From NCBI GenBank assembly GCA_043771335.1, contig JAYVHM010000005.1:1-49340 (forward strand): a DNA stretch of 49,340 bases, written 5' to 3'. The translations under genes and the position numbers were made by a program. Source of the DNA: a bacterium (lineage in GTDB: Bacteria; Patescibacteriota; Minisyncoccia; Phycocordibacterales; UBA5272). Every line of letters begins with the position of its first letter. Position 1 is the stretch's first letter. The notes beneath the pieces are model-generated. The model was not told the DNA's origin. It made no database searches and saw nothing but the letters and a program-made list of their open reading frames with translations. Shown in pieces: positions 6,217 through 49,340 of the stretch.

Positions 6217-6290
6217 ATATTCAATTATACAATACAAAGACAAATATAACACTTGCTTTATGCACAAATACTTGTTAGTATGAATATCTG

Positions 6291-7461: not shown

Positions 7462-7878
7462 TTATTTAACCGCTTCTTCAGAAACTTTTGAGAACTTTAC
7501 GCTTTCAAATATTAATTTCTTTTCTAATTTTCCTGTTCCTAAGATTTTTACTTTTGGTATACGTCCTAGTCTCATTTGTATTAGACCCATAGCAACTAGT
7601 GTTGTAGGCGATACGACAGAGCCATTTTCAAATACATTAAGGTCAACTAAGTTAACTGGTATGTAATTTTCTCTAAAGGCTTTGTTCATATTCACTCCAC
7701 GTCCGCGAAGCTTTGGTATTTTCTTGATTACATCACGAAGCGCTGGACGACGTTTGTTACCTGCTCTCGCAGTTTGTCCTTTGCCTCCACGTCCTGATGT
7801 TTTTCCTCTTGTTCCACCACGACCTACTTGGCGTGATTTCTTATTTGGGTTTTCTCTTACTATTTCATTTATTTGCAT
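7462..7878 (-). CDS. rplO: 50S ribosomal protein L15
   Basis: Gly/Arg-rich N-terminus typical of L15: RQVGRGGTRGKTSGRGGKGQTARAG. Sits immediately downstream of rpsE. Confidence 0.95.
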   Translation of the reverse strand: MQINEIVRENPNKKSRQVGRGGTRGKTSGRGGKGQTARAGNKRRPALRDVIKKIPKLRGRGVNMNKAFRENYIPVNLVDLNVFENGSVVSPTTLVAMGLIQMRLGRIPKVKILGTGKLEKKLIFESVKFSKVSEEAVK

Positions 7879-17251: not shown

Positions 17252-18166
17252 TTATCTCGTCCAGCAGACTCTGTAATACTCTAATATGTCCTCTTTTGTT
17301 AATACGAATCTATCTTCAGAATTAAGATAATACATAATAGATGCTGGGGTTTTTGTATGGCTCATTTTAAGAGCATGCCCTAACTCATGAGCTATTAATC
17401 TTTTTAAATTTGTAATGTCTTTGTATTCATATAAAGTGATTTTGTTATTAAAATATGTCCCTTGTTCGAACTTTTTACCGATATTTTTATTCAACTCTTT
17501 TACCAAGTTATTCGCCTCGGCCACCAAATCATTATATCCATTGACGCTCATGTTGAGAGAGGTGACATAGCTCTCTAGTTTTTTATTCCTTGTTTCTAAT
17601 TCATGCTTGTCACTTTCTAATACACTCTTGTTTTGATTTAATTTATAATAGTCAGAATCATTAGCTCCACCCTCTTTGTTTATTCTTGTGACTTCATTGT
17701 TGTAATTATTTAATTTATTTTTAAAAACCTCCCAATCTTTTTCAAAATCAGTCTGCTCGCTTTTTAACTTCTCCTTTTCTGTATTCAAATGTTTCAACTG
17801 ACTTTCTAGGACAATAGACTTGTCTTTTGTTTTTTCAGATAAAATATTTTTTTCTATTGTCTCTCTTTGCCTTTCATCATATTTAAAATCAATTACAACT
17901 TTTCCGGTCTCACTGTATTCTAAAACTTTTTCACCCAGACCATTGTTCCAGATATTAGCTGCTTCGGTAGCGTATTTTAAAACTTCTTCTTTTGTTAAGT
18001 TAAACTCAGTATCTACTTTTCCTATTCTAAAAGTTTGAGTCTTTTCACAAGAGCTTTTAAATGAGTAAGCACTGGTTGACATTAAAAATACAAAAGAGAT
18101 AAGTAAAAGGTAGCTTAACGTGTGTTTTAAATTTTTATATTTTTTAGAAAAATACGTCATCATCAT
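17252..18166 (-). CDS. Membrane-anchored or secreted metzincin (matrixin-like) zinc metalloprotease with an internal coiled-coil insert
   Basis: HELGHALKMSH matches HExxHxxxxxH, followed by a Met-turn candidate SIMYY. N-terminal hydrophobic segment. The central ~130 aa are K/E/N-rich coiled coil. Confidence 0.75.
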   Translation of the reverse strand: MMMTYFSKKYKNLKHTLSYLLLISFVFLMSTSAYSFKSSCEKTQTFRIGKVDTEFNLTKEEVLKYATEAANIWNNGLGEKVLEYSETGKVVIDFKYDERQRETIEKNILSEKTKDKSIVLESQLKHLNTEKEKLKSEQTDFEKDWEVFKNKLNNYNNEVTRINKEGGANDSDYYKLNQNKSVLESDKHELETRNKKLESYVTSLNMSVNGYNDLVAEANNLVKELNKNIGKKFEQGTYFNNKITLYEYKDITNLKRLIAHELGHALKMSHTKTPASIMYYLNSEDRFVLTKEDILEYYRVCWTR

Positions 18167-19258: not shown

Positions 19259-20218
19259 ATGAAAACTAATAATCTGAATAATCTTTTATTAAAAGTAAAA
19301 AATGATAAGAGGGTTTTAATTGCTTTTGCATTACTTGCCACACTACTCTTTACTTGTATTTATCTATACAAAATCAACCTAGATTATAAAAAGCAAAATG
19401 TATTAATAACAGAAGAAGCTAAAATACTAAAAATAAATCTAGATGAGATAAATCAAAAATACATAGATATAGTAAATAAAATAGAAGTAGCTGAAAAAGA
19501 TAAAATATATCTATTCAATAGTTTAAATGGAGTCAAAAGCGAATACAATGGGTTAATGCAGAATTATGATGCAAAACTAAAAGAAGTAGACACTTTGAGT
19601 AAGGCTGTATATTACGATGATGAACTATTGAAAAAATATTCCAAATACTACTTTCTCAATGAGAACTATGCCCCGTCTTCTACCGAAATAATATCTCCCA
19701 TATACACACTTAATAATAAAGAAATCAAAATATTAAGTGAGGTAAAGCCAAAATTAGAAAACATGTTAATGGCAGCACAAAATTATAATCAAAACTCTAC
19801 CAATACTACAAATAATATTAATCTTGTAATTCATTCTGGATACAGATCTTTTGCTGAGCAAAAAGGCTTAAAGAGTGCCTATACGAGAACCTATGGTATA
19901 AGTAAAGCAAATCAGTTCTCGGCTGACCAAGGTTATAGCGAACATCAATTAGGAACTACTGTAGACATAACTGATGGGAAAAGTGGACTGTCTACTAATT
20001 TTGATAAAACGAAAAGTTTTTTGTGGCTAAAGGATAATGCACATAGATATGGATTCATCCTTTCTTATAACAAAGAAAATAAATACTATATGTATGAGCC
20101 ATGGCACTGGAGATATGTTGGAGTAGAACTTGCTACTTATATGCATGACAATGGTCTTAATTTCTATGATATAGACCAAAACAAAATAGACGAGTATAAG
20201 ACTAAGATATTTGATTAA
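19259..20218 (+). CDS. D-alanyl-D-alanine carboxypeptidase, peptidase M15B (VanY-like), membrane anchored
   Basis: N-terminal TM segment, then a coiled-coil linker. Zn-ligand motifs are SGYRSFAEQ, SEHQLGTTVDI and EPWHWRYVG. Confidence 0.85.
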   Translation: MKTNNLNNLLLKVKNDKRVLIAFALLATLLFTCIYLYKINLDYKKQNVLITEEAKILKINLDEINQKYIDIVNKIEVAEKDKIYLFNSLNGVKSEYNGLMQNYDAKLKEVDTLSKAVYYDDELLKKYSKYYFLNENYAPSSTEIISPIYTLNNKEIKILSEVKPKLENMLMAAQNYNQNSTNTTNNINLVIHSGYRSFAEQKGLKSAYTRTYGISKANQFSADQGYSEHQLGTTVDITDGKSGLSTNFDKTKSFLWLKDNAHRYGFILSYNKENKYYMYEPWHWRYVGVELATYMHDNGLNFYDIDQNKIDEYKTKIFD

Positions 20219-26494: not shown

Positions 26495-28027
26495 CTAAAT
26501 TAAACTACTAACAGCCTGATTAAACTTCTCTCCCCTGTCATATTCATTTTGAAACATACCAAAAGATGCAAAGGCTGGGGTAAATAAAATAATATTTTCA
26601 GCATCACTTTCCTTACCATTCTCAGACACGCTTCGCGCTGTGGTCACTGCCAACTCCAAATTTTCTACCAATATATAATCCTTAAAATTATTTTTCTCAA
26701 ATATTTCTAATAATTTTCTTGTTCCTGTTGTAGTCTCGTCACTTAGTAAGATAATTTCTTTTATTATATTTTTATTCTTAAAATCTATTATCGTATTAAC
26801 ATAATTAGTCATGTCTAGCTCTTTGTCTCGACCTCCTGTTATGAGTATTATTTTCTTACTTGTGTTTTGATTTTCTGTAGCGAAGCTTTTAAGCGCTGCG
26901 ATGCTGGCATCCCCTGTGGTCGCACAAGTATCATTAATATAATCTACTCCATTTAAAGTTCTAACTTTTTCAAGCCTTCCCTCCACTCCATAAAAATCAT
27001 CCAAGCTTTTCTGTATACTAATATCATCTACTCCAAAACTTTTACAAGCAGTGATAGCGAGTGCTACGTTTATCTTATTATGCTCTCCTGGTAAATTAGA
27101 TTTAAAATTATTATTTATTTCTAATATATTTTCTTCATTTAAAAATATTTTTTTATTTTCTTTATTATAAAAATCTTTTAACTCATCATCACTTAGATAC
27201 TTCTCCATGCTTAGCATTATATTTTCTGTGCTTACAAAAACATCTGTATTATTTTTCTCAGATCTTTGATTGAGGAATATCGCAGCCTTGTCGTGAAAGT
27301 AGTCCTGCATATCACCCTTATAATAATTCATATGATCAGGCATAATGTTTGTAAAAACTGCAATGTCTGGAGAATACCCTATATCTGCAAATCCTTGTAA
27401 TATCCATGAATCTAACTCCATAACAATCACGTCGCCAGATTTTACATGTTTTAAATTCTCAAGAGTAGCTACACCTTGAACGTTACCACCAAAATATACT
27501 TTTCTATTTGTGTTCTCTAAATAATCTTCTATAATTTTTTTTATCAAAAATGTAGTGGTGGTTTTTCCTCTCGTGCCCGTCACGCCAATTATTTTTATAA
27601 TATTATTTTCTTCCTGATTAAGATTAAACTCTCTGATTATTTCTACAAATAGGCTAGACTCTTGATATATTTTTACACCACTTTTTTTTGCGTGATTTAA
27701 ATATATATTATCTTTTGGGACACCGCTCGCCTGCACGACATAGTCACAATTTTCTTTTTCAAAATCTTCTAATCTGTGCTCGCCTAATCTATAAGTTATT
27801 CTGTTTTCATCTATATTGTTTTCTTTTATAAAATCTTCTACTTCCTTTATACTTTGCCCTAAATCTTTTTCACTTTTCATGTCAGTCACTAAAACACTTG
27901 CTCCATTTTCTAATAAAAATTTTACCACATTAGCCCCACGCCCCAAAAAACCAAAACCCTGTTTGGTTATTCTCTTACCCTCAAAGTGTTTTTTGTAATC
28001 GAGACTTTTGTCTAAACTTTTCTTCAT
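26495..28027 (-). CDS. murD: UDP-N-acetylmuramoylalanine--D-glutamate ligase (Mur ligase family)
   Basis: N-terminal Rossmann region GFGFLGRGANVVKFLLENGASVLVTD. Mur ligase P-loop GVTGTRGKTTTT. I prefer the ATG at 28027 over the track's TTG at 28051. The protein is longer than E. coli MurD because of inserts. Confidence 0.78.
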   Translation of the reverse strand: MKKSLDKSLDYKKHFEGKRITKQGFGFLGRGANVVKFLLENGASVLVTDMKSEKDLGQSIKEVEDFIKENNIDENRITYRLGEHRLEDFEKENCDYVVQASGVPKDNIYLNHAKKSGVKIYQESSLFVEIIREFNLNQEENNIIKIIGVTGTRGKTTTTFLIKKIIEDYLENTNRKVYFGGNVQGVATLENLKHVKSGDVIVMELDSWILQGFADIGYSPDIAVFTNIMPDHMNYYKGDMQDYFHDKAAIFLNQRSEKNNTDVFVSTENIMLSMEKYLSDDELKDFYNKENKKIFLNEENILEINNNFKSNLPGEHNKINVALAITACKSFGVDDISIQKSLDDFYGVEGRLEKVRTLNGVDYINDTCATTGDASIAALKSFATENQNTSKKIILITGGRDKELDMTNYVNTIIDFKNKNIIKEIILLSDETTTGTRKLLEIFEKNNFKDYILVENLELAVTTARSVSENGKESDAENIILFTPAFASFGMFQNEYDRGEKFNQAVSSLI

Positions 28028-28133
28028 TTTAATATTATACACTAAAGACAAAACTCTGTATACTTTGAGGTCTAAAAATGATAATATGTATGTAGGAAAA
28101 GACGGAAATCAAATATATAATATTAATTAAAAT

Positions 28134-30446
28134 ATGCTAAAAAAAATACATCATGCTCTTAGTGGCCACACCAGTGGGCGCGCTCATCAAAAAGATGAAT
28201 ACGAAGAGAATCATCACAAAAACCTTAATCACAGGAGAAAGAGTTATGGTACTTCTCTTTTCAAAGAGATGACCCTATTCACTTTTGGATTAGGGTTCAT
28301 TTTGGTTGCTATAACTTTAGTATGGGTAGCGACTCTTCGCTTGCCAGATTTTAATGATTTTGAAAATAGAAAAATAGCTAATAGTACAAAAATATATGAT
28401 AAAACTGGAAAAGTTTTACTCTATAATCTTCACGATAATATCAAGAGAACTCAAGTAAAATCTGAAGATATAAGTGATAATATAAAAAGAGCAACAATAG
28501 CCATCGAAGATAGAGACTTCTACCAACATTATGGCATTAGTCCAAGGGGTATCATGCGCTCTGTCTATGTTGCCGTCACCACTGGGTCAGCTTCACAAGG
28601 AGGCTCAACAATAACACAGCAAGTAATCAAAAATGCATTACTTACCAGAGAGAAAACAATTACAAGAAAATTAAAAGAGTGGATACTCGCTGTAAAGTTA
28701 GATGCTCAAGTTAGTAAAGAGGACATTCTGACCATATATCTAAACGAATCTCCGTATGGAGGAACTATTTACGGTGTAGAAGAGGCTTCACTGTCTTATT
28801 TTAATAAAAATGCAAAAGATGTAACTCTCGTTGAGGCTGCATACTTAGCGGCTATGCCTCAGGCCCCTTCTCGTTACTCACCTTTTTCTGGAAACAAAGA
28901 AGCTTTAGAGAATAGAAAAAATCTGGTTCTAGATAAAATGCTAGAGACAGATGCTATCACAAAAGAAGAATATGATAAAGCAAAATTAGAGAAGGTAGAG
29001 TTTCAAGAGAGAGATAATGTAAATGGAAAAGCTTATCACTTTGTATTTTATGTTATAGAATATCTTGAAGATAAATACGGAAAAGAGGTTATAGAAAATG
29101 ATGGACTAAAAGTCACAACGACTCTTAATTGGGATTATCAAAAAGAAGGTGAGAAGATCGTAAAAGAAGCTGCACTTAAAAATGCAGCGAAGTTCGGCGC
29201 AGAAAATGCTGCCATGGTAACTCTAGATCCAAAGACTGGGCAAATATTAGCCATGGTAGGTTCGAGAGATTATTTTGACGATGAGATAGATGGAAAATAT
29301 AATATAGCAACAGCACTCAGACAGCCAGGCTCTACTTTTAAGCCCATTGTCTATCTTCTTGGTTTTATGCGTGGCTTTGAACCTGAAACTGTTTTGTATG
29401 ATTTACCTACACAATTCTCTACGAACTGTGATGCCTATGGGACCAGCTTAAATGGGGGCAAATGTTATGCACCAGTTAATTATGATGGAAACTTTCATGG
29501 TCCAGTGTCATTACGTATTGCTCTTCAAAATAGTATTAACATCCCTGCTATAAAAATGCTTTACTTGGTTGGAATCAAAAATACTTTAGACTTTGCAAAG
29601 AAGCTTGGCATATCTTCGCTCGGTGACACTTCTCGTTTTGGTTTGTCTCTGGTGCTTGGAGGTGGTGAGGTATCATTGCTTGAGATGACAAATGTATACT
29701 CTACTTTTGCTAATAGCGGTGTCTACAATAAGACTACACCGATATTAGAAGTAAAAGATAAAGATGGAAATATTTTAGAAAAATATACACAAAAAAGTGT
29801 AGACGTAGTACCAAAAGAATATACAGATAAATTATCAAATGTGCTCAGCGATGCTGAGGCCAGAAGCCTAACCTTTTCTCGTGGTAATCCTATTAACTTT
29901 TATGATAGGCAAGTAGCTGCAAAGACAGGAACTACCAATGATTTTCGTGACGTATGGGTTATGGGTTATACCCCAAGCATTGCTGTTGGAACCTGGGGAG
30001 GTAATAACAATAACAAATCAGTTACTAATGTCGCAGGTGCCGTATTGTCTCCTATGTGGAGAAAATATATGAACTTTGTTTTAGCTGATCTACCTGTTGA
30101 AACTTTTGATACACCTCATGCTGACGCCAGCTCAACACCACATTATCTAAATGGTAATTACTGCGCAGCTGGAGCTGGCACTATATTACGCTTCATCGGT
30201 GGACAAGGCGGTAAAGGCGGATCAAGTGATCCACAGTACAGTCTATGGAATACACCGATACTTGCGGGGAATTATTGTAATAATGGTGATACTGGTGTAG
30301 AGACAAATACAACAGGCACGACAGATACAACAACAAACACAATTGAAACTAGCCCTGTAAATACAGAACCAAATGCGACCCAAGACACCACCACCACAAA
30401 TAACGGGAACACAATCAACCTGATCTTTACCCCATCTTCTATATAG
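28134..30446 (+). CDS. Class A penicillin-binding protein (bifunctional GT51 transglycosylase / transpeptidase)
   Basis: TM anchor. GT51 motifs are EDRDFYQHYGISPRG, GGSTITQQVIKN and RKLKEW. Transpeptidase motifs are STFKP, SINIP (SxN) and KTGTT. Thr-rich C-terminal tail. Confidence 0.92.
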   Translation: MLKKIHHALSGHTSGRAHQKDEYEENHHKNLNHRRKSYGTSLFKEMTLFTFGLGFILVAITLVWVATLRLPDFNDFENRKIANSTKIYDKTGKVLLYNLHDNIKRTQVKSEDISDNIKRATIAIEDRDFYQHYGISPRGIMRSVYVAVTTGSASQGGSTITQQVIKNALLTREKTITRKLKEWILAVKLDAQVSKEDILTIYLNESPYGGTIYGVEEASLSYFNKNAKDVTLVEAAYLAAMPQAPSRYSPFSGNKEALENRKNLVLDKMLETDAITKEEYDKAKLEKVEFQERDNVNGKAYHFVFYVIEYLEDKYGKEVIENDGLKVTTTLNWDYQKEGEKIVKEAALKNAAKFGAENAAMVTLDPKTGQILAMVGSRDYFDDEIDGKYNIATALRQPGSTFKPIVYLLGFMRGFEPETVLYDLPTQFSTNCDAYGTSLNGGKCYAPVNYDGNFHGPVSLRIALQNSINIPAIKMLYLVGIKNTLDFAKKLGISSLGDTSRFGLSLVLGGGEVSLLEMTNVYSTFANSGVYNKTTPILEVKDKDGNILEKYTQKSVDVVPKEYTDKLSNVLSDAEARSLTFSRGNPINFYDRQVAAKTGTTNDFRDVWVMGYTPSIAVGTWGGNNNNKSVTNVAGAVLSPMWRKYMNFVLADLPVETFDTPHADASSTPHYLNGNYCAAGAGTILRFIGGQGGKGGSSDPQYSLWNTPILAGNYCNNGDTGVETNTTGTTDTTTNTIETSPVNTEPNATQDTTTTNNGNTINLIFTPSSI

Positions 30447-35013: not shown

Positions 35014-35310
35014 ATGAGCAACGAAAAACAAAATGCATTACAAGACCCTTTTCTGAATAAACTGAGAAAAGAGAATGTTCCCGTAAGTATATACCTAGTC
35101 AATGGTATAAAGCTGCAAGGGCAAATAGAGTCTTTTGACCAATACGTTATCCTGCTCCGCAATACGGTGACACAGATGGTGTATAAGCATGCCATCTCCA
35201 CCATCGTGCCTGGACGCACGATTGCCTTTACGCCCTACGATGCGGGGAATAACTTTATGAGCGCGGACACAGGCAAAAGCGAAGACCTGCCTAAAATACC
35301 TATTGATTAA
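35014..35310 (+). CDS. hfq: RNA chaperone Hfq (proteobacterial type)
   Basis: [58 protein letters not shown] is almost identical to the Sm1/Sm2 core of E. coli and Neisseria Hfq as I remember them. Confidence 0.96.
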
Positions 35311-40320: not shown

Positions 40321-40785
40321 TTACTTCAAGGTAATTGTTTTTATTAATTTATCTTCCTTGGCATCATACATAACGAGTAGCGTGGGATAAGCGATAAGAT
40401 AGTCATCTTTTTTCAAATCATTATACATGGGAGAAACTTTTTGCAAGACCATCGGGTCTTTTACTTTTATAAAAAGACTAGCCTCTCCTTTTGGTAAAGT
40501 TATTATATTTTTAACTTTATCCATAACTTGTTCTTTTGTTAAAATTACATTTTCTATCTCTACTTTTTCTACTTTTTGTATATCATTAATTTTCTTATCT
40601 TCTTTTTCTTGACTATACTTTTGCATAACTTTTCCACTGACACCAACTATCATACTGAGAGACTTTTTTGTTACAGCATACATGGAGAACATCAAAAATA
40701 TTACGACAAAAACAAGCGTCATCAATCTGACCAGACTGATTCTTTTTATTTTCTTTTTATTTATTTTTAGATTTTTATCTTTCAT
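40321..40785 (-). CDS. Hypothetical membrane-anchored protein (154 aa), divergent third member of a paralog family
   Basis: N-terminal TM segment (LVRLMTLVFVVIFLMFSMYAV). The C-terminal domain ITLPKGEASLFIKVKDPMVLQK...DDYLIAYPTLLVMYDAKEDKLIKT aligns by eye with the ORFs at 41851 and 42231. Confidence 0.65.
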   Translation of the reverse strand: MKDKNLKINKKKIKRISLVRLMTLVFVVIFLMFSMYAVTKKSLSMIVGVSGKVMQKYSQEKEDKKINDIQKVEKVEIENVILTKEQVMDKVKNIITLPKGEASLFIKVKDPMVLQKVSPMYNDLKKDDYLIAYPTLLVMYDAKEDKLIKTITLK

Positions 40786-40803
40786 ATTTTTGATTTATAA
40801 AGT

Positions 40804-41826
40804 TTAATTATTTCTGTATTGACTATCTATTTTGTTATAAACATACTCTGACGTTTTATAAATAGCATCTATAAGCTTGCTAACATCTTGTCCTCTAGTC
40901 ATAACACATAATAGATACGGGTGATCTGGGTAGTAAATAATACCGCAATCATGGAACTGTTGGAGACTATCTGTCGGCTTCCTCTCGCCAAATTTGTGAG
41001 ATATAGGAATACTGAGTGGCACACCCTTCCTCACCCCCTGCTCAAAAGTTGACTGTGATAGTAACTTGAGGGCATACTCTGAATTAGATTGTGACAAGAA
41101 AGATGCATTAAAAAGTATTCTAAAAAATATACTGTATTGTGTTATAGAGAGAGCGCTTTTTGGGTCTGTCATGATATTTACATCTACTCCAGTGAGTGAG
41201 TATAGGTCTTGTTGATAAGACACAGGTAATCTTTGGTACAATAAGACCAGGGCCTGATTGTCGGAATATTTTACCATACTCTCCATGAGCTCTCTGGCAG
41301 TGTATGTTCTACCCACTTCTAGTGGTATAGTAGGCGCAAACTCTTGTGTGTAGCCGACACTCACCTCTTTTTCAAACTTTATCTTCTCATCCATAACTTC
41401 TGGTTTATCTTCTGACCATTTGAGATAAGCTATTAGTATAGGAACCTTTAAGAGGCTAGCTGGAGCAAAAGCTTCATTTGCATTGATGCTTATCACTGGT
41501 CCATTGTTGAGGTCGCGATAGTATACAGAGATATCTTTTAGATTTTCCTTTTCTTTTATTTCTTCTGAGAAGTCTTTTAGGTCTGGTGAGAAGTCTAACT
41601 TTTTCGAAGAGATAGTGTCTCTTGCTATCTCACATTCCAGAAGAGGATTTGTGAATCCAAGCTTACTCCCTGCTCTTAACTCTACATCTTGTTCTGCATT
41701 TGAAACAGAGAAATTATTTGCAAAAACATAACCAGATAATAATCCAATGCACAATAAAAATATATAACTAAGAATTACTCTTGGTGTTAAGAACTTTATT
41801 ATATTTTTAATGGTATTGTTTTTCAT
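40804..41826 (-). CDS. Membrane-anchored serine hydrolase with a class-A beta-lactamase/PBP-like fold
   Basis: N-terminal TM segment. SLLK (SxxK), YSDN (SDN) and HKFG (KTG-like) occur with spacing close to class A beta-lactamase numbering (70/130/234). Confidence 0.62.
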   Translation of the reverse strand: MKNNTIKNIIKFLTPRVILSYIFLLCIGLLSGYVFANNFSVSNAEQDVELRAGSKLGFTNPLLECEIARDTISSKKLDFSPDLKDFSEEIKEKENLKDISVYYRDLNNGPVISINANEAFAPASLLKVPILIAYLKWSEDKPEVMDEKIKFEKEVSVGYTQEFAPTIPLEVGRTYTARELMESMVKYSDNQALVLLYQRLPVSYQQDLYSLTGVDVNIMTDPKSALSITQYSIFFRILFNASFLSQSNSEYALKLLSQSTFEQGVRKGVPLSIPISHKFGERKPTDSLQQFHDCGIIYYPDHPYLLCVMTRGQDVSKLIDAIYKTSEYVYNKIDSQYRNN

Positions 41827-41850
41827 GTTTTGCTTTTTATTTATTTTTTA

Positions 41851-42222
41851 TTAATTGTTTAAATTGATACCTCCCACCTCAATGATCTTGTTCATTGATG
41901 GACTATATAGTATTACTTTTTTGATATTACTGTATATGAGTATCTTGTCTCCTGCTTGCGCCTTTGCAAAGAATGGCTGCCCTTCTAATTTCTTCGGATC
42001 TGTTACTGTGGCGAGTGTTGGCGTCTCATCTTCTGGTAATATCATTAGCTTTGAAACTTTTTTTATAACTTGCTCTAACTCTTTTTGTGAGTCACCACTG
42101 GTGTCAGCTTTTCTCATCGCAAAGTAGTATCCACCTCCAGTAAATATGCCAGCAATTATAAGAATTGGGATAAATCTTATGGCTAGCCTTATTATTGTTT
42201 TGTTTATGTTTATTTTTTTCAT
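41851..42222 (-). CDS. Hypothetical membrane-anchored protein (123 aa), paralog family member
   Basis: TM anchor, then LMILPEDETPTLATVTDPKKLEGQPFFAKAQAGDKILIYSNIKKVILYSPSMNKIIEV. About 55% identical by eye to the C-terminal domain of the next ORF. Confidence 0.7.
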   Translation of the reverse strand: MKKININKTIIRLAIRFIPILIIAGIFTGGGYYFAMRKADTSGDSQKELEQVIKKVSKLMILPEDETPTLATVTDPKKLEGQPFFAKAQAGDKILIYSNIKKVILYSPSMNKIIEVGGINLNN

Positions 42223-42230
42223 GTTTTTGT

Positions 42231-42608
42231 TTAATTTGTTTTGGTAATTATTGGTGCTATTTCTACTATTTTGTCTCCTGTTGGTCTGTATAATATTGCC
42301 TTCTTGGCGAGACTATATATCAAGACCTTGTCTCCCTTTTCTGCATTTGTAAAGAAGGGATACTTTTTTAACTGTTCTGGATCTGAGACTGTGGCCAGTG
42401 TCGGCACTTCATCTTTTGGTAATACTATGTGAGTCCCTACTTTACTAATCACCTCTACTCTCTCCCTCTCGGCTACATCTACCATGTCCACCTTACCCTT
42501 GTCTGGATAAAAATATTTCCACCCGATAAATATTAGTAAGGATAATATAATTACAAATAGAAATCTTATTATTGCTTTTGTTTTTAGTTTTATTTTTGTT
42601 TTTTGCAT
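42231..42608 (-). CDS. Hypothetical membrane-anchored protein (125 aa), paralog family member
   Basis: TM anchor, then HIVLPKDEVPTLATVSDPEQLKKYPFFTNAEKGDKVLIYSLAKKAILYRPTGDKIVEI. It starts 26 nt after the giant gene's stop codon. Confidence 0.7.
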   Translation of the reverse strand: MQKTKIKLKTKAIIRFLFVIILSLLIFIGWKYFYPDKGKVDMVDVAERERVEVISKVGTHIVLPKDEVPTLATVSDPEQLKKYPFFTNAEKGDKVLIYSLAKKAILYRPTGDKIVEIAPIITKTN

Positions 42609-42634
42609 ATTTTTAATTTTAGGATTTTATAATT

Positions 42635-45600
42635 CTATTGACCATTTACTGGTATTTCTGAAGGTGTGTTAGTGGTATTGTTTTCTGTAGTACTTGACGT
42701 AGTATCTGTTGTTGTGTTTATATCAGGAATAATCTCGTCTGTTGTGGTGCTAGTAATATTTGACTCTGTTGTAGTTGACGTATCACCTTCAGTAGTAAAA
42801 GTATTTATATTTTCTGCTGTGCTAGTGGCTACTTCGAGTGAAGTAAATACTTTTGCATCCTTGATGGCGAGCGCCATCCACATAAAGGTTATATCTTCGT
42901 TTGGTGCTTTGTTAAGTAGGATTGTGAATCCTTTTGTGTTTCTCTTTGTTACTATAAACTTAAGACTTTCATCAAAAGCTGCAAGCTCCCTGATCTCTAA
43001 CGTACTAGTTGCCTCATCTGAGAATGATATAGAGGCTACTACTGATGGAGATTCTATATACTCTTTATCAAATATAATCTCTACTGATTTTGCTCCTTTT
43101 TTGATTATAGCTGTTCCTCCCATATCATGATTAAAATATGGTCTACCAAAGAACTCCACATCACCAAGAAGTGCAAGCACTGAATTATCTGTTCCTATAG
43201 TGTTAACAAGTAATCCACCGCGTAATACAGCTTGACCGCTTACAGATAACGATTCTGTCTTAACCTCTTTAGCTACTATCTCTCCCGCAAAGAATGCATT
43301 ACCTTTCATGTCAAAAGCAATAACTTCATCTGGGCCAAATATTGAAACTTCTGTAGTTGTTGCTGTTGTGCTTGCGATGTTGTCTGTACTACTAGCAAAT
43401 TCATCTGTGCTAGTTGCTGTAGCTACTGTGCTAGTAGATTTACTAAACATCACCATTCTACCATCAGCAGTGAATCTAAAACCAATATCTCCTGTAGTAG
43501 AAACTAGTGCATCAGTCACAACCTTCTTAGCAATTATAACTTCTGCTGATATTCTGAACCCTTCGATATTTGTTATATGCGCCTCGCGGGCCGCTAATAT
43601 ATCTGTGATTATTTTTGGAGCGATAACTTCTGAGATAACGTGGACATTCTGAGCAAATATATCTGATTGACCATTTAGATTGGCTTCATTTTCTTCTTTT
43701 ATTTTCTTTAAGAATGCGAGAACTTCTGTGTCGTGAGTTGTAGCTATAGAGTTAAATCCTAGTGTACTAGTCGCACCATTTGCTGTTACTCCATAACCCT
43801 CTACTCCAGCTACAGATAATCCTGTCTCATTATATAGCGCTGTAGTATCTGAGTGATTTGATGACCATTCATCCATGGCTACTTGTATTGATCCTCCTTT
43901 GTAGTCTACAAGATTTACGAACATCATAACTACTCCACACTTTACATTCTCTCGGAGTCCAGCAGCTACTCCAGGACAAACTTTCATATTACCCTCTGTC
44001 AGATCCTCCATAGCTTTACCTATTACGCGTCCAGCATATGTTGCCTTCATGGCGTAACCAGGAATAGATGCAGAAGTTAAATAGTCACCAGCTCTCACTG
44101 GTCCATTCTCAGTGCTAACCTTTACCGGTACACGTCCGACAAGTCCTATCGGATATGAATCTTCGGTGAATGCACCAGCGATGAATCCAGGCGCTGTACT
44201 CACAACTCCGAGCATGCCTTCTTGATATGCTCCTGTTGATTTCTTTACTCCATGATTATTCATATAGTCTGAAACCACAACATCTCCAGCCTCTAGGTAA
44301 TCAGTAGAAGTATAACGCTCCGCGAGGTCGGCACCTCCCGAATAGAATCCACCACTTGCTCCTGTATAAACATTACCAGATGTGGTCACCCTCATTACAT
44401 TTAATCCATTATCTTGTAGAGTAAGTAAGTCCATACCATTATTCACCTTGTACTCACTCACTGTTGGTAGTGATATGGTACGATATGGATAAACCATACC
44501 TCCTCCTGTGTTATAAACACCACTCAAGGCTCCACCAAAAGTTGGAAAATCACGACGAAAATTAACTACTACTTGCACCCATGTCTCACCACCCGCATTG
44601 TTGATGCTAGACCCACTTATTCCTATAGTGTTATACCCAGTAGAAGATAGTCCTGACTGAGTAGTTGAAGCACGTATTTCCATACGGACAAAGTTGTCTG
44701 GGGCTTGCTTCCATTCTAATGTAGAGTTAGCAGCGAGTGCAGGGACATTCATCTGCTCAGATAGATATTGACCCTCGGCATACCATCCAGCATCATAAGT
44801 AAGCACTGATGCAGTAGAGCTACCATTTATCATTACCCACTTACCATCAGGACGTTGAAATGATATAGCACCGACTCCTTGACCTATCAAGGTAGATGGT
44901 CCAGACACTGTAGATCCAAGCTGTGTACCTACTGCAAAAGTAGAACCATTTGGATCATATATAGTGCTGAGTGTAACAGAAGAAGACGCGTGTATAATAA
45001 GGAATGTACCGTCAGCGCGTGGTATCATGTGGGCCCCACGACTAGCAACAGCAGATAGAGCAGGTCCTGCAATAGTCGTACCGTTAACAGCATTAATAAT
45101 ATTTGTAGAGTTGGCAGGTATACCTGCAGCACCTGACTGTGCTGTTATAGACAACCACTGACCATCAGACTTTTGAAAAGCAAAGGCTCCGCAACCGTGT
45201 GCTGTAGTGAATGCAGTACCTGCTGAAAAAGATTTGGCTGCTGGATTATAAACCATAGCCGTAGTAGCACCAGCGACTCCAGGAGCAACACCTACAGAAG
45301 TTTTGTATGTACCATTTTGTAATGGTATCGCAAAGAATCCACAGTTAGCCGCAGTAGTTAATACTGGCCCAGCTATCATAGTGTTACGCACTGGATCATA
45401 GAGAGATGAAGTCGTTAATGCTCCACCGTGAACTATTGTAAATGTGCCATCAGTGTTAGGTATTGCAGATGCTCCTAGCGCCGCGACTCCTGAGAGTATT
45501 GGTCCTGCTGAGAAAGTGTTAGTGTCAGCATTATAAATATTTGTAACTGCAGTAGAACTTCCCATCACAACCAAGAACTTACCGTCTGGTCTCTTGAGGG

Positions 45601-48600
45601 CAAAACCTCCACCTCCATTTGGTGCTGTCGGTATACTAGCTCCTGACTGTGCAGTAAAAGTCTGTGTAGCTGGATCGTAAAGTGCAGCATTAGCAGCTGG
45701 GGTATTAAGAGACGCGATGATTATAAAAGTTTTATTTGGTCTAACAATAACTATTGTACCTTCATTTGTCTGAGCTTGAGGAAGATTTGGATGTGCGGCA
45801 GAGACGAGCCCCATATAGTAACCATTTGTACCTGCAACTGTAGTTGGTGTGATGCGACCATATGGAAGCTGTAGTCCAGCAGCACTAGGCTCGACACGAG
45901 TCATAGTAGGTCCTGAAGTTTCTGTCTGAGCACCGTTAAGAGCAGCGTTAGGAAGTCCAAAGTCAGCAGCAGAGCGATGTAATGCCACAGAGTTATCAAT
46001 AGAGTAATCAAACACTGCAGGAGTCTGATAGTCTAGTCTATTTACAGAGCTACCGTTACCAGTCCATGTACCACGCTCATCTACTATTCTCTTTGGTATT
46101 GGTCTGTTAAATTGTATCTTTACTTTTATTGCCTGGTCAGTACTACTTGCTCCAACAAGACTTCCAGAAGAGCTGATCTCTCTATCTGTAGCATAAGCTA
46201 GAGCTGCTGTACTTGTACCAGTACGCACTAGGAATTGAAGAGTTGAGAAGGCTGAGTTAATAGTGCTGTTTGTTCCAACATATGGAGTTTCAAATTGCGC
46301 TGTCCATTTGAATACTGAGCGAGCGTTCAGTGCTGTGCTTGCTATATCTTCTGAAGTATATAAAGCAGTTGTTCCTGTCATAGTTAGACCAGTATCATAT
46401 TTGTTTGAGGCTGTACCTCCTCCTACGAATACTTGCCATGTACCATCATAATTCATAAGCGAGAACGCTCCTGTAGTTATTGCAGTAGTGGCTGTGCCTT
46501 GTGCAGTATAAGTATTATTAACGGAATCATAGACGTAAGAAGCTGTGGATCCACCACCCACAACAATCAAGAAGTTTCCATTTTGTAATGGTATAGCGTG
46601 CGCTCCATCACCAAGTGCTGTTGCTGGTCCGTTACTGGTTGAACATGTGAAAGTGTTTGCTAATGGGTCATAGATAGTAGAAGCATTCACTTTTGAGAGT
46701 ACTACATATTTACCATCTTGTTTTTTGAGTGCTACTGACCCTGCACCATTGATTTCACAGCCTGTACCCATAGTAGGCCCTGCTGAGAAGACTCCAATAT
46801 TTCCCGTACCAGACCCTTGATTATAAAGTTGAGTATTTCCTGTTGCGCCTCCGACGACCATTAGAGCTTGTCCATCTGGTCTTTGTAAAACCAGCGCTCC
46901 AGCTGCAGAAACACCAGCCGTCATAGAAGGTCCTGTTGCAAAGGTGTTTGCTACTGTATCATATATCTGTGTAGTACCCGCTCCACCATTTGTAAATAAG
47001 AATCTACCATCAAAACGCTTAAATGCTACAGTACCAGCACCAGACGCAGTAACTGCAGGTCCTGCTGCAGCTGCAAGAGATCCTTGTGGATCTATAAGGG
47101 TAGTAGTAGTCAAAGCTCCTCCGTGTATCACTAGGTATCTTCCGTCTGGTCTTGGCAATGCTAGTGCTCCTGCTCCAGCCACTCCAGTTAATACTTGAGC
47201 TGAGGCACTAGTGGTTGCAGCTACTGAGTTGTATATATCCATACCTGTTCCTGCTCCTCCACGAATAATGAGATACATGCCGTCAGCGCGTGTGATACCA
47301 AAGGCTCCTGCACCGAGCGCTGCTGAAGTTGTAACTTGTCCTGCAGTAGTGATCGTACCTTTACCAGAGTTTGGTACTGTGCCATCTGACAATTCTAGGC
47401 GACCATTTAGATTTGTTAAACTTGCTCCAACAGTTCCAAGAGAAAATTCAGGAGTTGATGTCCTCACGATAGACGAGTCAGCTCCATTGATGGTTAGTCC
47501 ACCGTTGTTAGCTACAATAAATTTATCAAGTCCGGATTGTTGTAGTTGTAATAGATTTCCTGAGCCTGTTTGATTTACTCTAATGCCTGAGTTAGCAGAG
47601 TTTGCCACGTCAGCAGAAGTAGGCGCAAGAGATACACCGCCGCCAGCTCCACCAGAAATAGTACTCCAATACATTCCTCCTGCACCGTCGGTAGTAAGAG
47701 CTTGCCCACTTGTACCATTTGTACCAGGGAGAGTAAATGTTAAGTTTGAGGCCTGAGTAGACGAAGATTTTAAATATGTGGCAAAAGAATTAATAGCATT
47801 TTGGAATGCTAATACACCAGCTTGTGAAGAAGCTGCACCCAAAGTAGTAGTGCCAGTTACTAATGCAGTACCTGCAACAGTTAAAGAAGACCCTGGTGTA
47901 GTAGTTCCGATTCCTAACCTATTATTAATACTGTCCCAGAAGAAATTTGAAGCACTTTCTTTAATAAAACCATCACTTCCGCCAAAAGCTACAGCACCTG
48001 TCGTATAGGCACCAAAGCGTGAACGTTGGGCAGAAATAAATATATTTCCAGACGCTCCTACTTTTGACACTTGTGCTATCGGATTTGTGAAGTTAGGCTG
48101 GCTTGGACGAGTGGAAGTCAGCGCTCCTGCGGTAGCGGCCGAAACATAGAGCGTGGCACCAGCTGCGAACGCAGACGTGTCATATACATGGATAACCCCA
48201 AAAGCAGTTACATAACCATTTGCATTGTTGGCTATGCTTTGAGTGGTAACGCCGACAGCATCACTGGTGGTGATAGAGTCTGCTTTGGCTAGAGCAATAG
48301 TTGGAAGTCCGGTCGTTCCATCCGCACCGTTAATATAGACAGCAGAACCGTTTGCGATAGTACTTCCTGTGATATTGCGTACGCGAATCCAATTTTCCTG
48401 ACCCAGATTCATGGTTACATTACTGTCATCGTTAAATAAAGAAAGTGCTTTTTCTGTATTGTCATAAAACAGGCGCCCTTCGGAATACGTAGGCTTGGTG
48501 CCTGTTGAAGAAAAATTAAGATAGGAAGCAGAAGAGCCGGAAACTGATAAGCCAATACTGCCAACCACTTGTAGAGCTTCTGCAGGTGTAGTCGTTCCGA

Positions 48601-49340
48601 TTCCCAGCCTATTATTCGTATTGTCCCAGAACAGCTGTGTGTTGTTTTGAGTAAGAACACCTGATGTTCCGATGAATGGCACAGATCCTTGAGTTAAAGA
48701 TGAGAAGGTTGGATTTGTAGAAAAAGTCTTAGACCCAGCAAATGTTTGTATACCTGTTGTCACAACTCCACGAGCAGAAACCGAAGCATCAGGTAAAGCA
48801 AAGGTATGCACTCCTCCTGATGTGGTAATAGAAAAGTCTGTACCAGATGTTGTGCTTGCAAATGTTTGAGTAGAGGCAACTGAACCATTTAATGAAGTTA
48901 AACCAGATCCTCCAGAACCACCAATACAAGATCCGTTAATAGCGAAACATCCTGCTCCTGTCAAAAGATTCAGTCCTCCGTTAAATGTAGATGTTCCAGT
49001 TCCAAGTAAGCTGAGTGTTCCAGTTGCAATAACGTTACCAGCAACGGAAAGCATCTCAGTTGGAGTCGATGTTCCTACGCCTAGGAATCCAGAAGTAGTT
49101 AGTCTTGTAGTTGTTGTAGTGGCTAAAGTAGAATTACCTGCAACAGCCAAAGTTCCATTAGATACTAATGATGAAGTGGCTGTAATATTTCCTCCAGTTA
49201 ACGTGTTGAAAGTTGCAGTGATGGCATTTATTAAGCTGGTGAAGAAGTTAGACGAGGTGGCGTTAGTGTTAATTAAGTTAGTGAGTGTAGCATTAGAAGA
49301 GTAAAGATTGCTTATCGTTCCAGAAGAGATAGATAGATTA
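42635..49340 (-). CDS. Giant Thr/Gly/Ser/Ala-rich surface protein (at least 2,235 aa; N-terminus beyond the window end) with tail-fibre-like repeats and two Kelch-like beta-propellers
   Basis: The track start at 49150 is a TTG inside an open frame. My minus-strand translation of 49151-49340 has no stop: NLSISSGTISNLYSSNATLTNLINTNATSSNFFTSLINAITATFNTLTGGNITATSSLVSNGT, then LAVAGN. See the repeat features and findings for domain evidence. Confidence 0.88.
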   Translation of the reverse strand, partial: NLSISSGTISNLYSSNATLTNLINTNATSSNFFTSLINAITATFNTLTGGNITATSSLVSNGTLAVAGNSTLATTTTTRLTTSGFLGVGTSTPTEMLSVAGNVIATGTLSLLGTGTSTFNGGLNLLTGAGCFAINGSCIGGSGGSGLTSLNGSVASTQTFASTTSGTDFSITTSGGVHTFALPDASVSARGVVTTGIQTFAGSKTFSTNPTFSSLTQGSVPFIGTSGVLTQNNTQLFWDNTNNRLGIGTTTPAEALQVVGSIGLSVSGSSASYLNFSSTGTKPTYSEGRLFYDNTEKALSLFNDDSNVTMNLGQENWIRVRNITGSTIANGSAVYINGADGTTGLPTIALAKADSITTSDAVGVTTQSIANNANGYVTAFGVIHVYDTSAFAAGATLYVSAATAGALTSTRPSQPNFTNPIAQVSKVGASGNIFISAQRSRFGAYTTGAVAFGGSDGFIKESASNFFWDSINNRLGIGTTTPGSSLTVAGTALVTGTTTLGAASSQAGVLAFQNAINSFATYLKSSSTQASNLTFTLPGTNGTSGQALTTDGAGGMYWSTISGGAGGGVSLAPTSADVANSANSGIRVNQTGSGNLLQLQQSGLDKFIVANNGGLTINGADSSIVRTSTPEFSLGTVGASLTNLNGRLELSDGTVPNSGKGTITTAGQVTTSAALGAGAFGITRADGMYLIIRGGAGTGMDIYNSVAATTSASAQVLTGVAGAGALALPRPDGRYLVIHGGALTTTTLIDPQGSLAAAAGPAVTASGAGTVAFKRFDGRFLFTNGGAGTTQIYDTVANTFATGPSMTAGVSAAGALVLQRPDGQALMVVGGATGNTQLYNQGSGTGNIGVFSAGPTMGTGCEINGAGSVALKKQDGKYVVLSKVNASTIYDPLANTFTCSTSNGPATALGDGAHAIPLQNGNFLIVVGGGSTASYVYDSVNNTYTAQGTATTAITTGAFSLMNYDGTWQVFVGGGTASNKYDTGLTMTGTTALYTSEDIASTALNARSVFKWTAQFETPYVGTNSTINSAFSTLQFLVRTGTSTAALAYATDREISSSGSLVGASSTDQAIKVKIQFNRPIPKRIVDERGTWTGNGSSVNRLDYQTPAVFDYSIDNSVALHRSAADFGLPNAALNGAQTETSGPTMTRVEPSAAGLQLPYGRITPTTVAGTNGYYMGLVSAAHPNLPQAQTNEGTIVIVRPNKTFIIIASLNTPAANAALYDPATQTFTAQSGASIPTAPNGGGGFALKRPDGKFLVVMGSSTAVTNIYNADTNTFSAGPILSGVAALGASAIPNTDGTFTIVHGGALTTSSLYDPVRNTMIAGPVLTTAANCGFFAIPLQNGTYKTSVGVAPGVAGATTAMVYNPAAKSFSAGTAFTTAHGCGAFAFQKSDGQWLSITAQSGAAGIPANSTNIINAVNGTTIAGPALSAVASRGAHMIPRADGTFLIIHASSSVTLSTIYDPNGSTFAVGTQLGSTVSGPSTLIGQGVGAISFQRPDGKWVMINGSSTASVLTYDAGWYAEGQYLSEQMNVPALAANSTLEWKQAPDNFVRMEIRASTTQSGLSSTGYNTIGISGSSINNAGGETWVQVVVNFRRDFPTFGGALSGVYNTGGGMVYPYRTISLPTVSEYKVNNGMDLLTLQDNGLNVMRVTTSGNVYTGASGGFYSGGADLAERYTSTDYLEAGDVVVSDYMNNHGVKKSTGAYQEGMLGVVSTAPGFIAGAFTEDSYPIGLVGRVPVKVSTENGPVRAGDYLTSASIPGYAMKATYAGRVIGKAMEDLTEGNMKVCPGVAAGLRENVKCGVVMMFVNLVDYKGGSIQVAMDEWSSNHSDTTALYNETGLSVAGVEGYGVTANGATSTLGFNSIATTHDTEVLAFLKKIKEENEANLNGQSDIFAQNVHVISEVIAPKIITDILAAREAHITNIEGFRISAEVIIAKKVVTDALVSTTGDIGFRFTADGRMVMFSKSTSTVATATSTDEFASSTDNIASTTATTTEVSIFGPDEVIAFDMKGNAFFAGEIVAKEVKTESLSVSGQAVLRGGLLVNTIGTDNSVLALLGDVEFFGRPYFNHDMGGTAIIKKGAKSVEIIFDKEYIESPSVVASISFSDEATSTLEIRELAAFDESLKFIVTKRNTKGFTILLNKAPNEDITFMWMALAIKDAKVFTSLEVATSTAENINTFTTEGDTSTTTESNITSTTTDEIIPDINTTTDTTSSTTENNTTNTPSEIPVNGQ
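44780..45765 (-). repeat. Kelch-like repeat array 2 (7 blades) within the giant protein
   Basis: IVRPNKTFIIIAS, LKRPDGKFLVVMG, IPNTDGTFTIVHGG, IPLQNGTYKTSVG, FQKSDGQWLSITA, IPRADGTFLIIHA and FQRPDGKWVMING, each followed by (I/L)Y(D/N)....(T/S)F..G. Confidence 0.55.
46385..47350 (-). repeat. Kelch-like repeat array 1 (7 blades of ~45 aa) within the giant protein
   Basis: Seven recurrences of the pattern h-x-R/K-x-DG-x-h-h-h-h-GG....YD....NT(F/Y): ITRADGMYLIIRGG, LPRPDGRYLVIHGG, FKRFDGRFLFTNGG, LQRPDGQALMVVGG, LKKQDGKYVVLSK, IPLQNGNFLIVVGG, LMNYDGTWQVFVGG. Confidence 0.55.

Follow-up and report, generated by a model that had tools for sequence, protein, structure and literature searches.

A giant Patescibacteria protein with a duplicated Kelch-type propeller head and a phi29 gp12-type chaperone module represents an unnamed protein family

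The window analysed here is a stretch of 49,340 nucleotides of contig JAYVHM010000005.1, and it ends inside a giant open reading frame (ORF) which occupies the minus strand between 49339 and its stop codon at 42635-42637 and, when translated, holds 2,234 codons with zero internal stops. Residues of the giant protein are numbered from the codon at 49339 as residue 1. From N- to C-terminus the part inside the window consists of a shaft, a head with two beta-propellers, a module of the Peptidase_G2 type (the G2 module), a linker, a lectin-like domain and a Thr-rich tail, whose positions are collected in Table 1. An earlier sequence-only reading of this DNA had described a giant modular protein with modules of the phage-fibre type and two propellers, and this outline stands. 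Little is known of how the ultrasmall Patescibacteria locate their hosts and keep hold of them: what has been learned comes from cultivated Saccharibacteria alone and points to type IV pili and a small number of adhesins (PMC12206443, PMC10633639). The locus described here defines a widespread and unnamed family of giant, very probably exported, proteins which may bear on this question.

Table 1. Features of the giant gene and of its downstream neighbours in the window
Feature	Residues	Position	Strand	Basis or remark
Giant ORF, C-terminal 2,234 codons and stop		42635..49339	-	N-terminus beyond the window
Thr/Ser/Asn-rich shaft with degenerate joint GFLGVGTSTP (residue 87)	1-125	48965..49339	-	
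Module SLNG..TQTFA..GTDF..HTFALPDASVSARGVVTTGIQTFAGSKTF with BppL_N-like motif (residues 192-211)	125-235	48635..48967	-	
First full joint, FWDNTNNRLGIGTTTP..L.V.G	236-262	48554..48634	-	Regular-expression search and translation
Beta module, exchangeable shaft cassette; phage cement/decoration-like core at about residues 346-410	263-465	47945..48553	-	
Second full joint, FWDSINNRLGIGTTTP..L.V.G	466-492	47864..47944	-	Regular-expression search and translation
Beta-rich neck leading into the head	493-655	47375..47863	-	Conserved in P0001, P0003 and P0114
Propeller 1, seven Kelch-type blades	660-985	46385..47362	-	Repeats, AlphaFold, Foldseek, Kelch-matching homologs
Post-propeller beta domain 1	986-1186	45782..46384	-	Homologous to residues 1521-1668; AlphaFold predicted local distance difference test (pLDDT) mostly <50
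Propeller 2, seven Kelch-type blades	1187-1520	44780..45781	-	Seven repeats; AlphaFold
Post-propeller beta domain 2, up to the predicted cleavage site	1521-1668	44336..44779	-	
Predicted phi29-gp12-type (Peptidase_G2-like) intramolecular chaperone/autocleavage domain	1669-1812	43904..44335	-	
D-L-A-E motif	1671-1674	44318..44329	-	Predicted cleavage A1670/D1671; D1671 codon 44327-44329
Linker with two long predicted helices (about residues 1865-1923) and Thr/Ser-rich low-confidence stretches	1813-2065	43145..43903	-	AlphaFold
H-type-lectin-like domain	2066-2170	42830..43144	-	Pfam, AlphaFold, Foldseek
Thr-rich low-complexity tail, 36% Thr	2171-2234	42638..42829	-	
Co-directional downstream genes, gaps of 8-26 nucleotides		40321..42608	-	Candidate fibre partners
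Three paralogous small transmembrane proteins of 125, 123 and 154 residues		42231-42608, 41851-42222, 40321-40785	-	
Transmembrane-anchored Beta-lactamase2-fold protein		40804-41826	-	Pfam E 8e-33; SLLK, SDN and KFG motifs readable

The head is built of one unit duplicated in tandem, each copy being a seven-bladed Kelch-type propeller followed by a beta domain. Two sets of seven repeats, about 45-50 residues each, follow the consensus G.GA.A..R.DG..L...GG...YD..NTF, in which F takes the place of the Kelch W. An AlphaFold model of residues 640-1545, built from a 9-sequence alignment with a mean pLDDT of 68.7, predicts with confidence two all-beta blocks, one of 27 and one of 28 strands, which correspond to about seven four-stranded blades each; the pLDDT is 70-88 in propeller 1 and mostly 70-94 in propeller 2, and the region between them is poorly predicted. 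Repeats, predicted propeller fold and structural matches thus recover the two seven-blade Kelch-like arrays that the sequence-only reading had proposed, with limits that nearly coincide. When the head was compared with the PDB by Foldseek, double seven-bladed propellers came first (BT4663, E 1.7e-15), followed by galactose oxidases and a designed Kelch protein, and the comparison with a viral library gave many Kelch proteins and, at rank 17, a phage protein which unites a propeller with an intramolecular-chaperone domain. A direct Pfam Kelch match was obtained neither with the whole protein nor with tiles of it; the homologs P0053 and P0022, with 30-34% identity to it across the propellers, match Kelch_6/Kelch_1 above the cut-off, also within the aligned region. 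As for the duplication, the unit at residues 650-1195 aligns to that at residues 1195-1668 over 491 columns with 27% identity (E 1e-32), and the two post-propeller beta domains aligned alone give E 6e-5. Since each propeller is followed by a homologous beta domain, it is the whole unit of propeller and beta domain that was tandemly duplicated, and what had earlier been called a beta-rich spacer between the arrays is not a mere spacer, for the same beta domain recurs after propeller 2.

The module which follows the head had been noted before as conserved-looking by its GADLAERY motif; its conservation is confirmed, while its key mechanistic identity had been missed. By its profile matches and predicted fold we assign it as an intramolecular chaperone domain of the phi29 gp12 type (Peptidase_G2-like). 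A profile made from 35 family sequences matches phi29 gp12 (6qz9_A residues 685-750) with E 3.4e-6, 3gqh_A, the crystallised fragment released from gp12, beginning at residue 1 (DFAEYFE...), with E 4.9e-6, and domain D4 of the tailspike Dpo31 with E 5.3e-5; direct matches to Pfam PF11962 occur in 13 of the 35 members, the best with E 8.5e-11. The D and the E of the D-x-A-E motif are invariant in all 35 sequences, and the rest of the module has a mean column identity of about 30%. The Asp and Glu of the corresponding D-x-x-E motif in gp12 are reportedly catalytic, as Xiang et al. are said to have found in 2009. In the AlphaFold model of the C-terminal part (residues 1640-2185) the pLDDT of the G2 block is 75-91, and a Foldseek comparison of this model with the PDB ranks premature gp12 (3suc) first, with E 2.4e-4 and probability 1.00. 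The template-modelling scores to known structures are low because the query models are multi-domain. Between orthologs, the G2 module is the best conserved part of the protein (89% identity), and virion structural proteins of PA5oct-like jumbo phages share 37-39% identity with it. Domain D4 of Dpo31 is a gp12-like auto-chaperone which is cleaved off and begins at an Asp (PMC13317679). Since D1671 aligns with residue 1 of 3gqh_A and D4 likewise starts with Asp, autocleavage of the giant protein is predicted between A1670 and D1671.

The arrangement of head and G2 module is conserved as a block across a family of unnamed giant proteins, many of them with Sec signals and encoded in cellular loci. 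A head-cassette profile of 900 positions, which covers the two units of propeller and beta domain and has the giant protein as its founding member, retrieved in an exhaustive search 4,882 cluster representatives at E<1e-3 and 139 at E<1e-30. Local hidden Markov models identify the full cassette in 39 of the retrieved proteins; the G2 module lies 105-130 residues downstream in 38 of them, the exception being truncated, and a lectin-like module is found in 29. Nearly all named homologs of the giant protein belong to Patescibacteria, and some homologs have a precomputed match to the Pfam entry PF26696. The look-up of clusters for the family representatives gave neither taxon nor functional names but only "hypothetical protein", and in the literature no description of a family with double propeller and G2 module was found. 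It had been said earlier that the architecture could not be assigned to a described family, which holds insofar as there is no Pfam or curated family for it, but the architecture is a recurrent and not a unique one.

The family had to be brought out by sensitive comparison. Scans of the whole protein against Pfam, PHROGs and NCBIfam gave nothing significant, phmmer with the whole protein against the PDB gave no match, and the domains surfaced only after the giant protein was tiled and family profiles were built. Against the PDB, a profile that spanned the entire C-terminus lost its signal by dilution (E 0.34), whereas the focused G2 profile succeeded. In the same way, a word-indexed search with propeller 1 and the adjoining spacer returned 6 matches only, and the exhaustive profile search was needed to reveal the family. 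The grappling-hook protein GhpA of Aureispira was considered as a relative and set aside, its weak match (E 0.17) being not significant.

Behind the D-x-A-E motif the chain continues for about 560 residues in the giant protein and for 260-800 residues among its homologs, with a linker which varies in length and sequence. The Thr-rich tail named in the sequence-only reading is there; a further 450 or so beta-rich residues had also been described, which does not fit the two long helices predicted in the linker and leaves out the lectin-like domain. For this domain, H_lectin (PF09458) is the top Pfam match in eight of eight family segments, one of them above the cut-off (28.5 bits), and the giant protein itself scores 16.5 bits, under the 24-bit cut-off. 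AlphaFold gives it a pLDDT of about 68-91, and Foldseek with the C-terminal model returns, besides gp12, the H-type lectins SLL-2, Helix agglutinins and discoidin II, with marginal E values of 6e-3 to 4e-2; for the entries 3wmp, 4q56, 2ccv and 2vme the E values are 6e-3 to 2e-2 and the probability is about 1.0. The homolog P0003 (L005:5940-14684) has a Peptidase_M23 domain at its C-terminus, after the H-lectin-like module, which hints at a variable C-terminal "cargo" behind the D-x-A-E motif.

A C-terminal part of this length supports the main rival to cleavage, in which the G2-like module would be only a structural or oligomerisation barrel, never cut, with the far C-terminal H-type lectin as the sugar-binding tip and the propellers in a sub-terminal position. 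It draws on the about 560 residues beyond the motif with a lectin-like domain conserved in most family members, on the long C-terminal parts of the homologs including the one which ends in Peptidase_M23, and on the related cement-like barrel at residues 346-410, which serves as a plain shaft module. We hold it to be unlikely, since the D and E are invariant in 35 sequences in spite of the low identity elsewhere in the module, the motif is aligned exactly to the first residue of the released gp12 fragment, and no part of the protein is better conserved between orthologs than the G2 module.

A second rival gives the propellers another task: the protein would be a tailspike-like enzyme and not an adhesin, with catalytic propellers (glycosidase, lyase or oxidase, on the model of endosialidase or galactose oxidase) that degrade a surface polymer of the host or prey. 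Galactose and alcohol oxidases are among the Foldseek matches, phage depolymerase tailspikes can bear chaperone domains of the G2 type (Dpo31, PMC13317679), P0003 has its C-terminal M23 peptidase, and the window is rich in cell-wall enzymes. We consider such an enzyme improbable: sequence searches of Pfam, NCBIfam and the PDB gave no match to an enzyme family, the oxidases share no more than 11-14% identity with the protein, conservation within the blades falls on the structural Kelch positions, and a catalytic motif was not identified.

The shaft is a mosaic of cassettes of the phage receptor-binding-protein type, namely a BppL_N-like motif, GIGT joints and a cement-like beta module. The module at residues 125-235 is common to 45 other giant proteins; its score against BppL_N, the Pfam family for the N-terminal part of phage receptor-binding proteins, is 19 bits (E 1e-3), under the cut-off of 25.8, and the homolog P0007, which is 51% identical to this module, itself scores 64.6 bits. 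The beta module at residues 263-465 reaches 24.9 bits on the Pfam family Phage_cement_2 against a cut-off of 24, and two of 12 homologs are matched by the PHROG "head decoration"; a profile of residues 250-465 against the PDB gave no meaningful match. The cement-like cassette as a whole (residues 236-465) is found in 64 other giant proteins. It is absent from the closest ortholog, P0001, which has another insert at that place (P0001 residues 675-840). The mosaicism of the shaft recalls the module swapping in phage tail fibres. As to the joints, at least three copies of (F/L)FWDxxNNRLGIGTTTP had been claimed, of which two are full (residues 236 and 466) and the third (residue 87, GFLGVGTSTP) is without FWD.

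The giant protein is very probably exported, because its orthologs and family start with Sec signal peptides, it has no transmembrane segment, and its cysteines are paired. Obvious Sec signal peptides are present in about 20 of the 39 full-cassette proteins, often of the form ...AFA followed by ATGINKQINFQGK, and in many members (among them P0003, P0118, P0129, P0130, P0141 and P0166) the signal peptide is directly followed by a conserved mature N-terminus, A(A/T)G(I/V)..QINFQGK(L/V).N..GTN, which is probably a common base or anchoring domain. Among the orthologs, P0003 begins with a signal peptide, and the one on L004 has its true start at L004:4859 with the Sec signal peptide MSFRKHINNKIFLVVISSVLLLSSFTFNTNAQS, from where it runs through a gap of N letters into the P0001 ORF for a total of about 3,670 residues. 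The N-terminal region of the L004 ortholog differs from the conserved family N-terminus and has repeats of the SVAIGxxA type, which may resemble the head repeats of YadA. The eight cysteines of the giant protein form four near pairs (residues 131/138, 861/899, 1333/1383 and 1788/1801), recur by eye in P0001-P0004 and are compatible with extracellular disulfides. No transmembrane segment was found in the giant protein.

The giant gene lies on the chromosome of a Paceibacteria-like member of the Patescibacteria. Among the products of the 49-kb window are GyrB, a Mur ligase, a class A penicillin-binding protein (PBP1), a LysM-M23 protein, VanY, CTP synthase, Rpe, a XerC/D-type recombinase, Hfq and BacA, and neither phage structural, packaging or lysis genes nor tRNAs were found within it. 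The CTP synthase is 83% identical to one from an unclassified metagenome-assembled genome (MAG) and 52-59% identical to many from Paceibacteria, Nomurabacteria and Saccharibacteria MAGs; this enzyme and the named homologs of the giant protein support Patescibacteria, in line with the small-genome bacterium of epibiont type that had been supposed. The loci of P0001, P0003 and P0008 are cellular as well.

These data decide on the reading in which the giant protein is a tail fibre of a prophage or tailocin, hence part of a virion. The phage-type modules (BppL_N-like, cement-like and G2 chaperone) and the likeness of the G2 module to the jumbo phage virion proteins would suit it. Nevertheless it is very improbable: the gene is surrounded by gyrB, Mur ligase, PBP1, CTP synthase, rpe and hfq, with no phage structural, packaging or lysis gene in 49 kb, the close homologs at three loci lie equally among cellular genes, Sec signal peptides are common in the family and needless for virion proteins, the propeller cassette had no tblastn match in 50,697 phage records, and the whole protein has no PHROG family match. 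On the context and on the PHROG and tblastn results, the prophage tail fibre was rejected.

The second point to settle is the integrity of the gene. The window is 100% identical to the ENA contig k141_154623 (L001, sample ERZ27315211) minus the last 816 nucleotides of that contig. On L001 the giant gene reaches 2,506 residues and is open still at the contig end, which agrees with the earlier statement that the ORF is open at the window edge and exceeds 2,235 residues; the listed start at 49150 is an internal TTG, as had also been recognized. The 816 nucleotides gained upstream from this parent contig do not reach the start of the gene. Beyond the window edge at 49340 (L001:1-1000) the N-terminal extension is made of repeats of about 20 residues, "...TVNGV.ATT...", and a 33-residue copy of the window-edge peptide NLSISSGTISNLYSS... 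sits 218 residues upstream. As this peptide occurs twice in L001, the assembly break falls inside protein-level repeats of the N-terminal shaft, and all assemblies break within the N-terminal repeat region of the giant gene. A protein search with the extra N-terminal 333 residues gave relatives at 41-49% identity only, and an exact DNA scan of the JGI metagenomes for the upstream sequence gave no match. In guanine-plus-cytosine content, the giant gene (0.43-0.46) exceeds most of the remaining window (about 0.30-0.37), as the sequence-only reading had remarked of its neighbours.

That contigs end inside the N-terminal repeat region, and that the N-gap of the L004 ortholog scaffold (about 7560-7660) lies in that ortholog's own, equivalent repeats, might suggest an assembly artefact, either a chimera or a product of collapsed repeats. 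The window part of the gene is free of DNA repeats except for one 46-nucleotide pair with 72% identity; an assembly made independently from a different sample (L003) has 99.94% identity over 41857-45423, which takes in the C-terminal 2.8 kb of the gene; the orthologs P0001-P0004 are colinear with the giant protein, and homologs from different assemblies are colinear over head and C-terminus. Taken together, these observations make the artefact scarcely credible, and in view of the missing repeats and the agreement with L003 a collapsed-repeat origin was rejected.

Downstream of the giant gene, and in the same direction, follow the small transmembrane proteins and the Beta-lactamase2-fold protein of Table 1. 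Each small protein has one N-terminal transmembrane helix and a conserved C-terminal domain, LP.DE.PTLATV.DP..L...PFF..A..GDK.LIY, and no Pfam match was found for the three. A Beta-lactamase2-fold gene adjoins the giant gene in all four loci examined (the window, L004:16681-17670, L005:15510-16478 and L088:18029-20067), with 32-57% identity among homologs and a wider context that differs in each locus, and the small transmembrane family occurs in three of the four (the window, L004 and L088, downstream of the giant gene). This synteny suggests that the giant gene, the Beta-lactamase2-fold gene and the small transmembrane genes may form a functional module, in which the enzyme could, for instance, attach the fibre to the wall or process it.

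Elsewhere in the window, cell-wall genes lie at 6291-7346, 17252-18166, 19259-20218, 26495-28051 and 28134-30446 (LysM-M23 peptidase, matrixin-like metalloprotease, VanY carboxypeptidase, Mur ligase and class A penicillin-binding protein). An ORF of 98 residues at 35014-35310 (+) belongs to the Pfam Hfq family according to the precomputed annotation of the parent contig. Two large ORFs, 3280-6267 (-) with 995 residues and 1122-3014 (-) with 630 residues, have no Pfam match and no module in common with the giant protein; the 995-residue ORF is Lys/Glu-rich with a probable transmembrane segment (GLRSAILTAVFAGLMAAGGGYVY).

Regarding function, we somewhat favour the view that the giant protein is a Sec-exported modular fibre, probably trimeric, which undergoes C-terminal autocleavage and acts as an adhesin; it would then probably grip another cell for attachment to a host or partner. 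In this scheme the fibre would first be exported by Sec, the G2 domain would nucleate the assembly of the upstream part into a folded trimer, in the manner of phage tailspikes, and it would then cut the chain in front of D1671, so that the mature fibre would end in six propellers per trimer. The six propellers may form the distal ligand-binding tip, probably for a glycan or protein on the surface of the host or partner cell, and the released fragment of about 560 residues with its lectin domain may stay associated or act separately. The neighbouring membrane-anchored enzyme of the penicillin-binding fold and the small transmembrane proteins may serve to mount the fibre on the cell envelope or to process it there.

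Several points weigh against this adhesin scheme. The roughly 420 residues after the G2 domain, including a probable lectin, are odd for a discarded piece, and the release of the gp12 fragment is reported to need adenosine triphosphate, which is unavailable outside the cell. No transmembrane segment, C-terminal LPXTG signal or anchor domain that would keep the fibre on its own cell was found, and its own N-terminus and signal peptide were not recovered, L001 adding 816 nucleotides only. Moreover, the giant protein stays under the Pfam cut-offs for Peptidase_G2 (PF11962; 17.8-18.2 bits, E about 2e-3, gathering score 25 bits), H_lectin, BppL_N and Kelch, and the assignments rest on family profiles, homologs and predicted folds. 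Both AlphaFold models are moderate, with mean pLDDT of 68.7 and 59.9 from shallow alignments of 9 and 17 sequences.

A bolder version extends the adhesin scheme to a dedicated "cellular tail fibre" system of Patescibacteria, in which a self-matured trimeric Sec fibre would be composed of shuffled phage cassettes, an exchangeable double-Kelch head would set host recognition, and the penicillin-binding-fold enzyme with the small transmembrane proteins would mount or process the fibre. We regard the system in this full form as rather doubtful; if it is true, head types would predict the pairings of candidate phyla radiation bacteria with their hosts. In either form, the family would reuse the logic of phage receptor-binding proteins: shaft cassettes that can be exchanged, a binding head at the far end and a C-terminal chaperone that cleaves itself off. 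Should the fibre serve attachment, it provides a concrete candidate for a specificity determinant, with a testable predicted cleavage site (A1670/D1671) and two candidate carbohydrate-binding modules, and it would be another phage-type intramolecular chaperone used outside the virion.

Among the known systems, the pre-neck appendage gp12 of phi29 (PDB 3gq7/3gqh/3suc/6qz9; MEROPS/Pfam Peptidase_G2) stands closest to the G2 module by its D-x-A-E module with the Asp as residue 1 of the released fragment, and both gp12 and D4 of the marine-phage tailspike Dpo31 are like the giant protein in that the module immediately follows the receptor-binding region of a long, beta-rich protein. The differences are that the direct Pfam score of the giant protein is below the cut-off, that a double Kelch propeller and not a beta-helix lies upstream of its module, that the gp12 chaperone forms the extreme C-terminus with about 163 residues whereas the giant protein has about 420 residues and a lectin-like domain after it, and that the giant protein is chromosomal in a family of Sec-secreted proteins and not part of a virion.

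The fibres and spikes with Peptidase_S74 (K1F endosialidase, T5 pb1) are likewise elongated trimeric proteins with a self-removed C-terminal chaperone, as is predicted for the giant protein, and the endosialidase also unites a beta-propeller with its chaperone domain. Many sister proteins of the family have S74 (PF13884) in place of G2. The giant protein itself differs by its G2 module, by seven-bladed Kelch propellers against the six-bladed sialidase type, and by its cellular setting. The L-shaped fibre pb1 of T5 has a Peptidase_S74 intramolecular chaperone (PMC4690869), and eukaryotic MYRF is a non-viral user of a self-cleaving intramolecular chaperone domain (PMC3742443).

For the head, galactose oxidase (1k3i) and the periplasmic domain of BT4663 (4a2m) are similar in predicted fold, blade number and the blade pattern hhhhGG...YD..N.(W/F), but the identity is 8-14%, and copper ligands as well as a Y_Y_Y or histidine-kinase context are absent from the giant protein. 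For the C-terminal domain, the H-type lectins (Helix pomatia agglutinin, discoidin II, coral SLL-2), which are trimeric, may be similar to its predicted fold, by marginal matches, and H_lectin leads in all family segments, though the score of the giant protein remains sub-threshold.

Among cellular adhesins, multiple protein adhesins are reported to be essential for the epibiotic growth of the Saccharibacterium Southlakia epibionticum by transposon sequencing (PMC10633639). They are like the giant protein in being large exported proteins with domains of glycan-binding type in an epibiont of the Patescibacteria, which is a functional analogy only: their domains are VCBS, dockerin and Fn3 against Kelch, G2 and H-lectin here, with no sequence relationship shown. 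Trimeric autotransporter adhesins of the YadA class differ in that no YadA_anchor Pfam match was found in the whole giant protein or in its C-terminal tiles; Patescibacteria are considered monoderm (PMC12102498).

Each module of the giant protein has thus a known relative, in the gp12 G2 chaperone, the Kelch propeller, the H-type lectin and the phage receptor-binding-protein motifs, and the logic of a fibre with a self-cleaving C-terminal chaperone is already known from phages and MYRF (PMC3742443). What is new is the conserved combination of two units of Kelch propeller and beta domain with G2 and H-lectin in giant Sec-secreted chromosomal proteins of Patescibacteria, together with the conserved neighbourhood of the giant gene.

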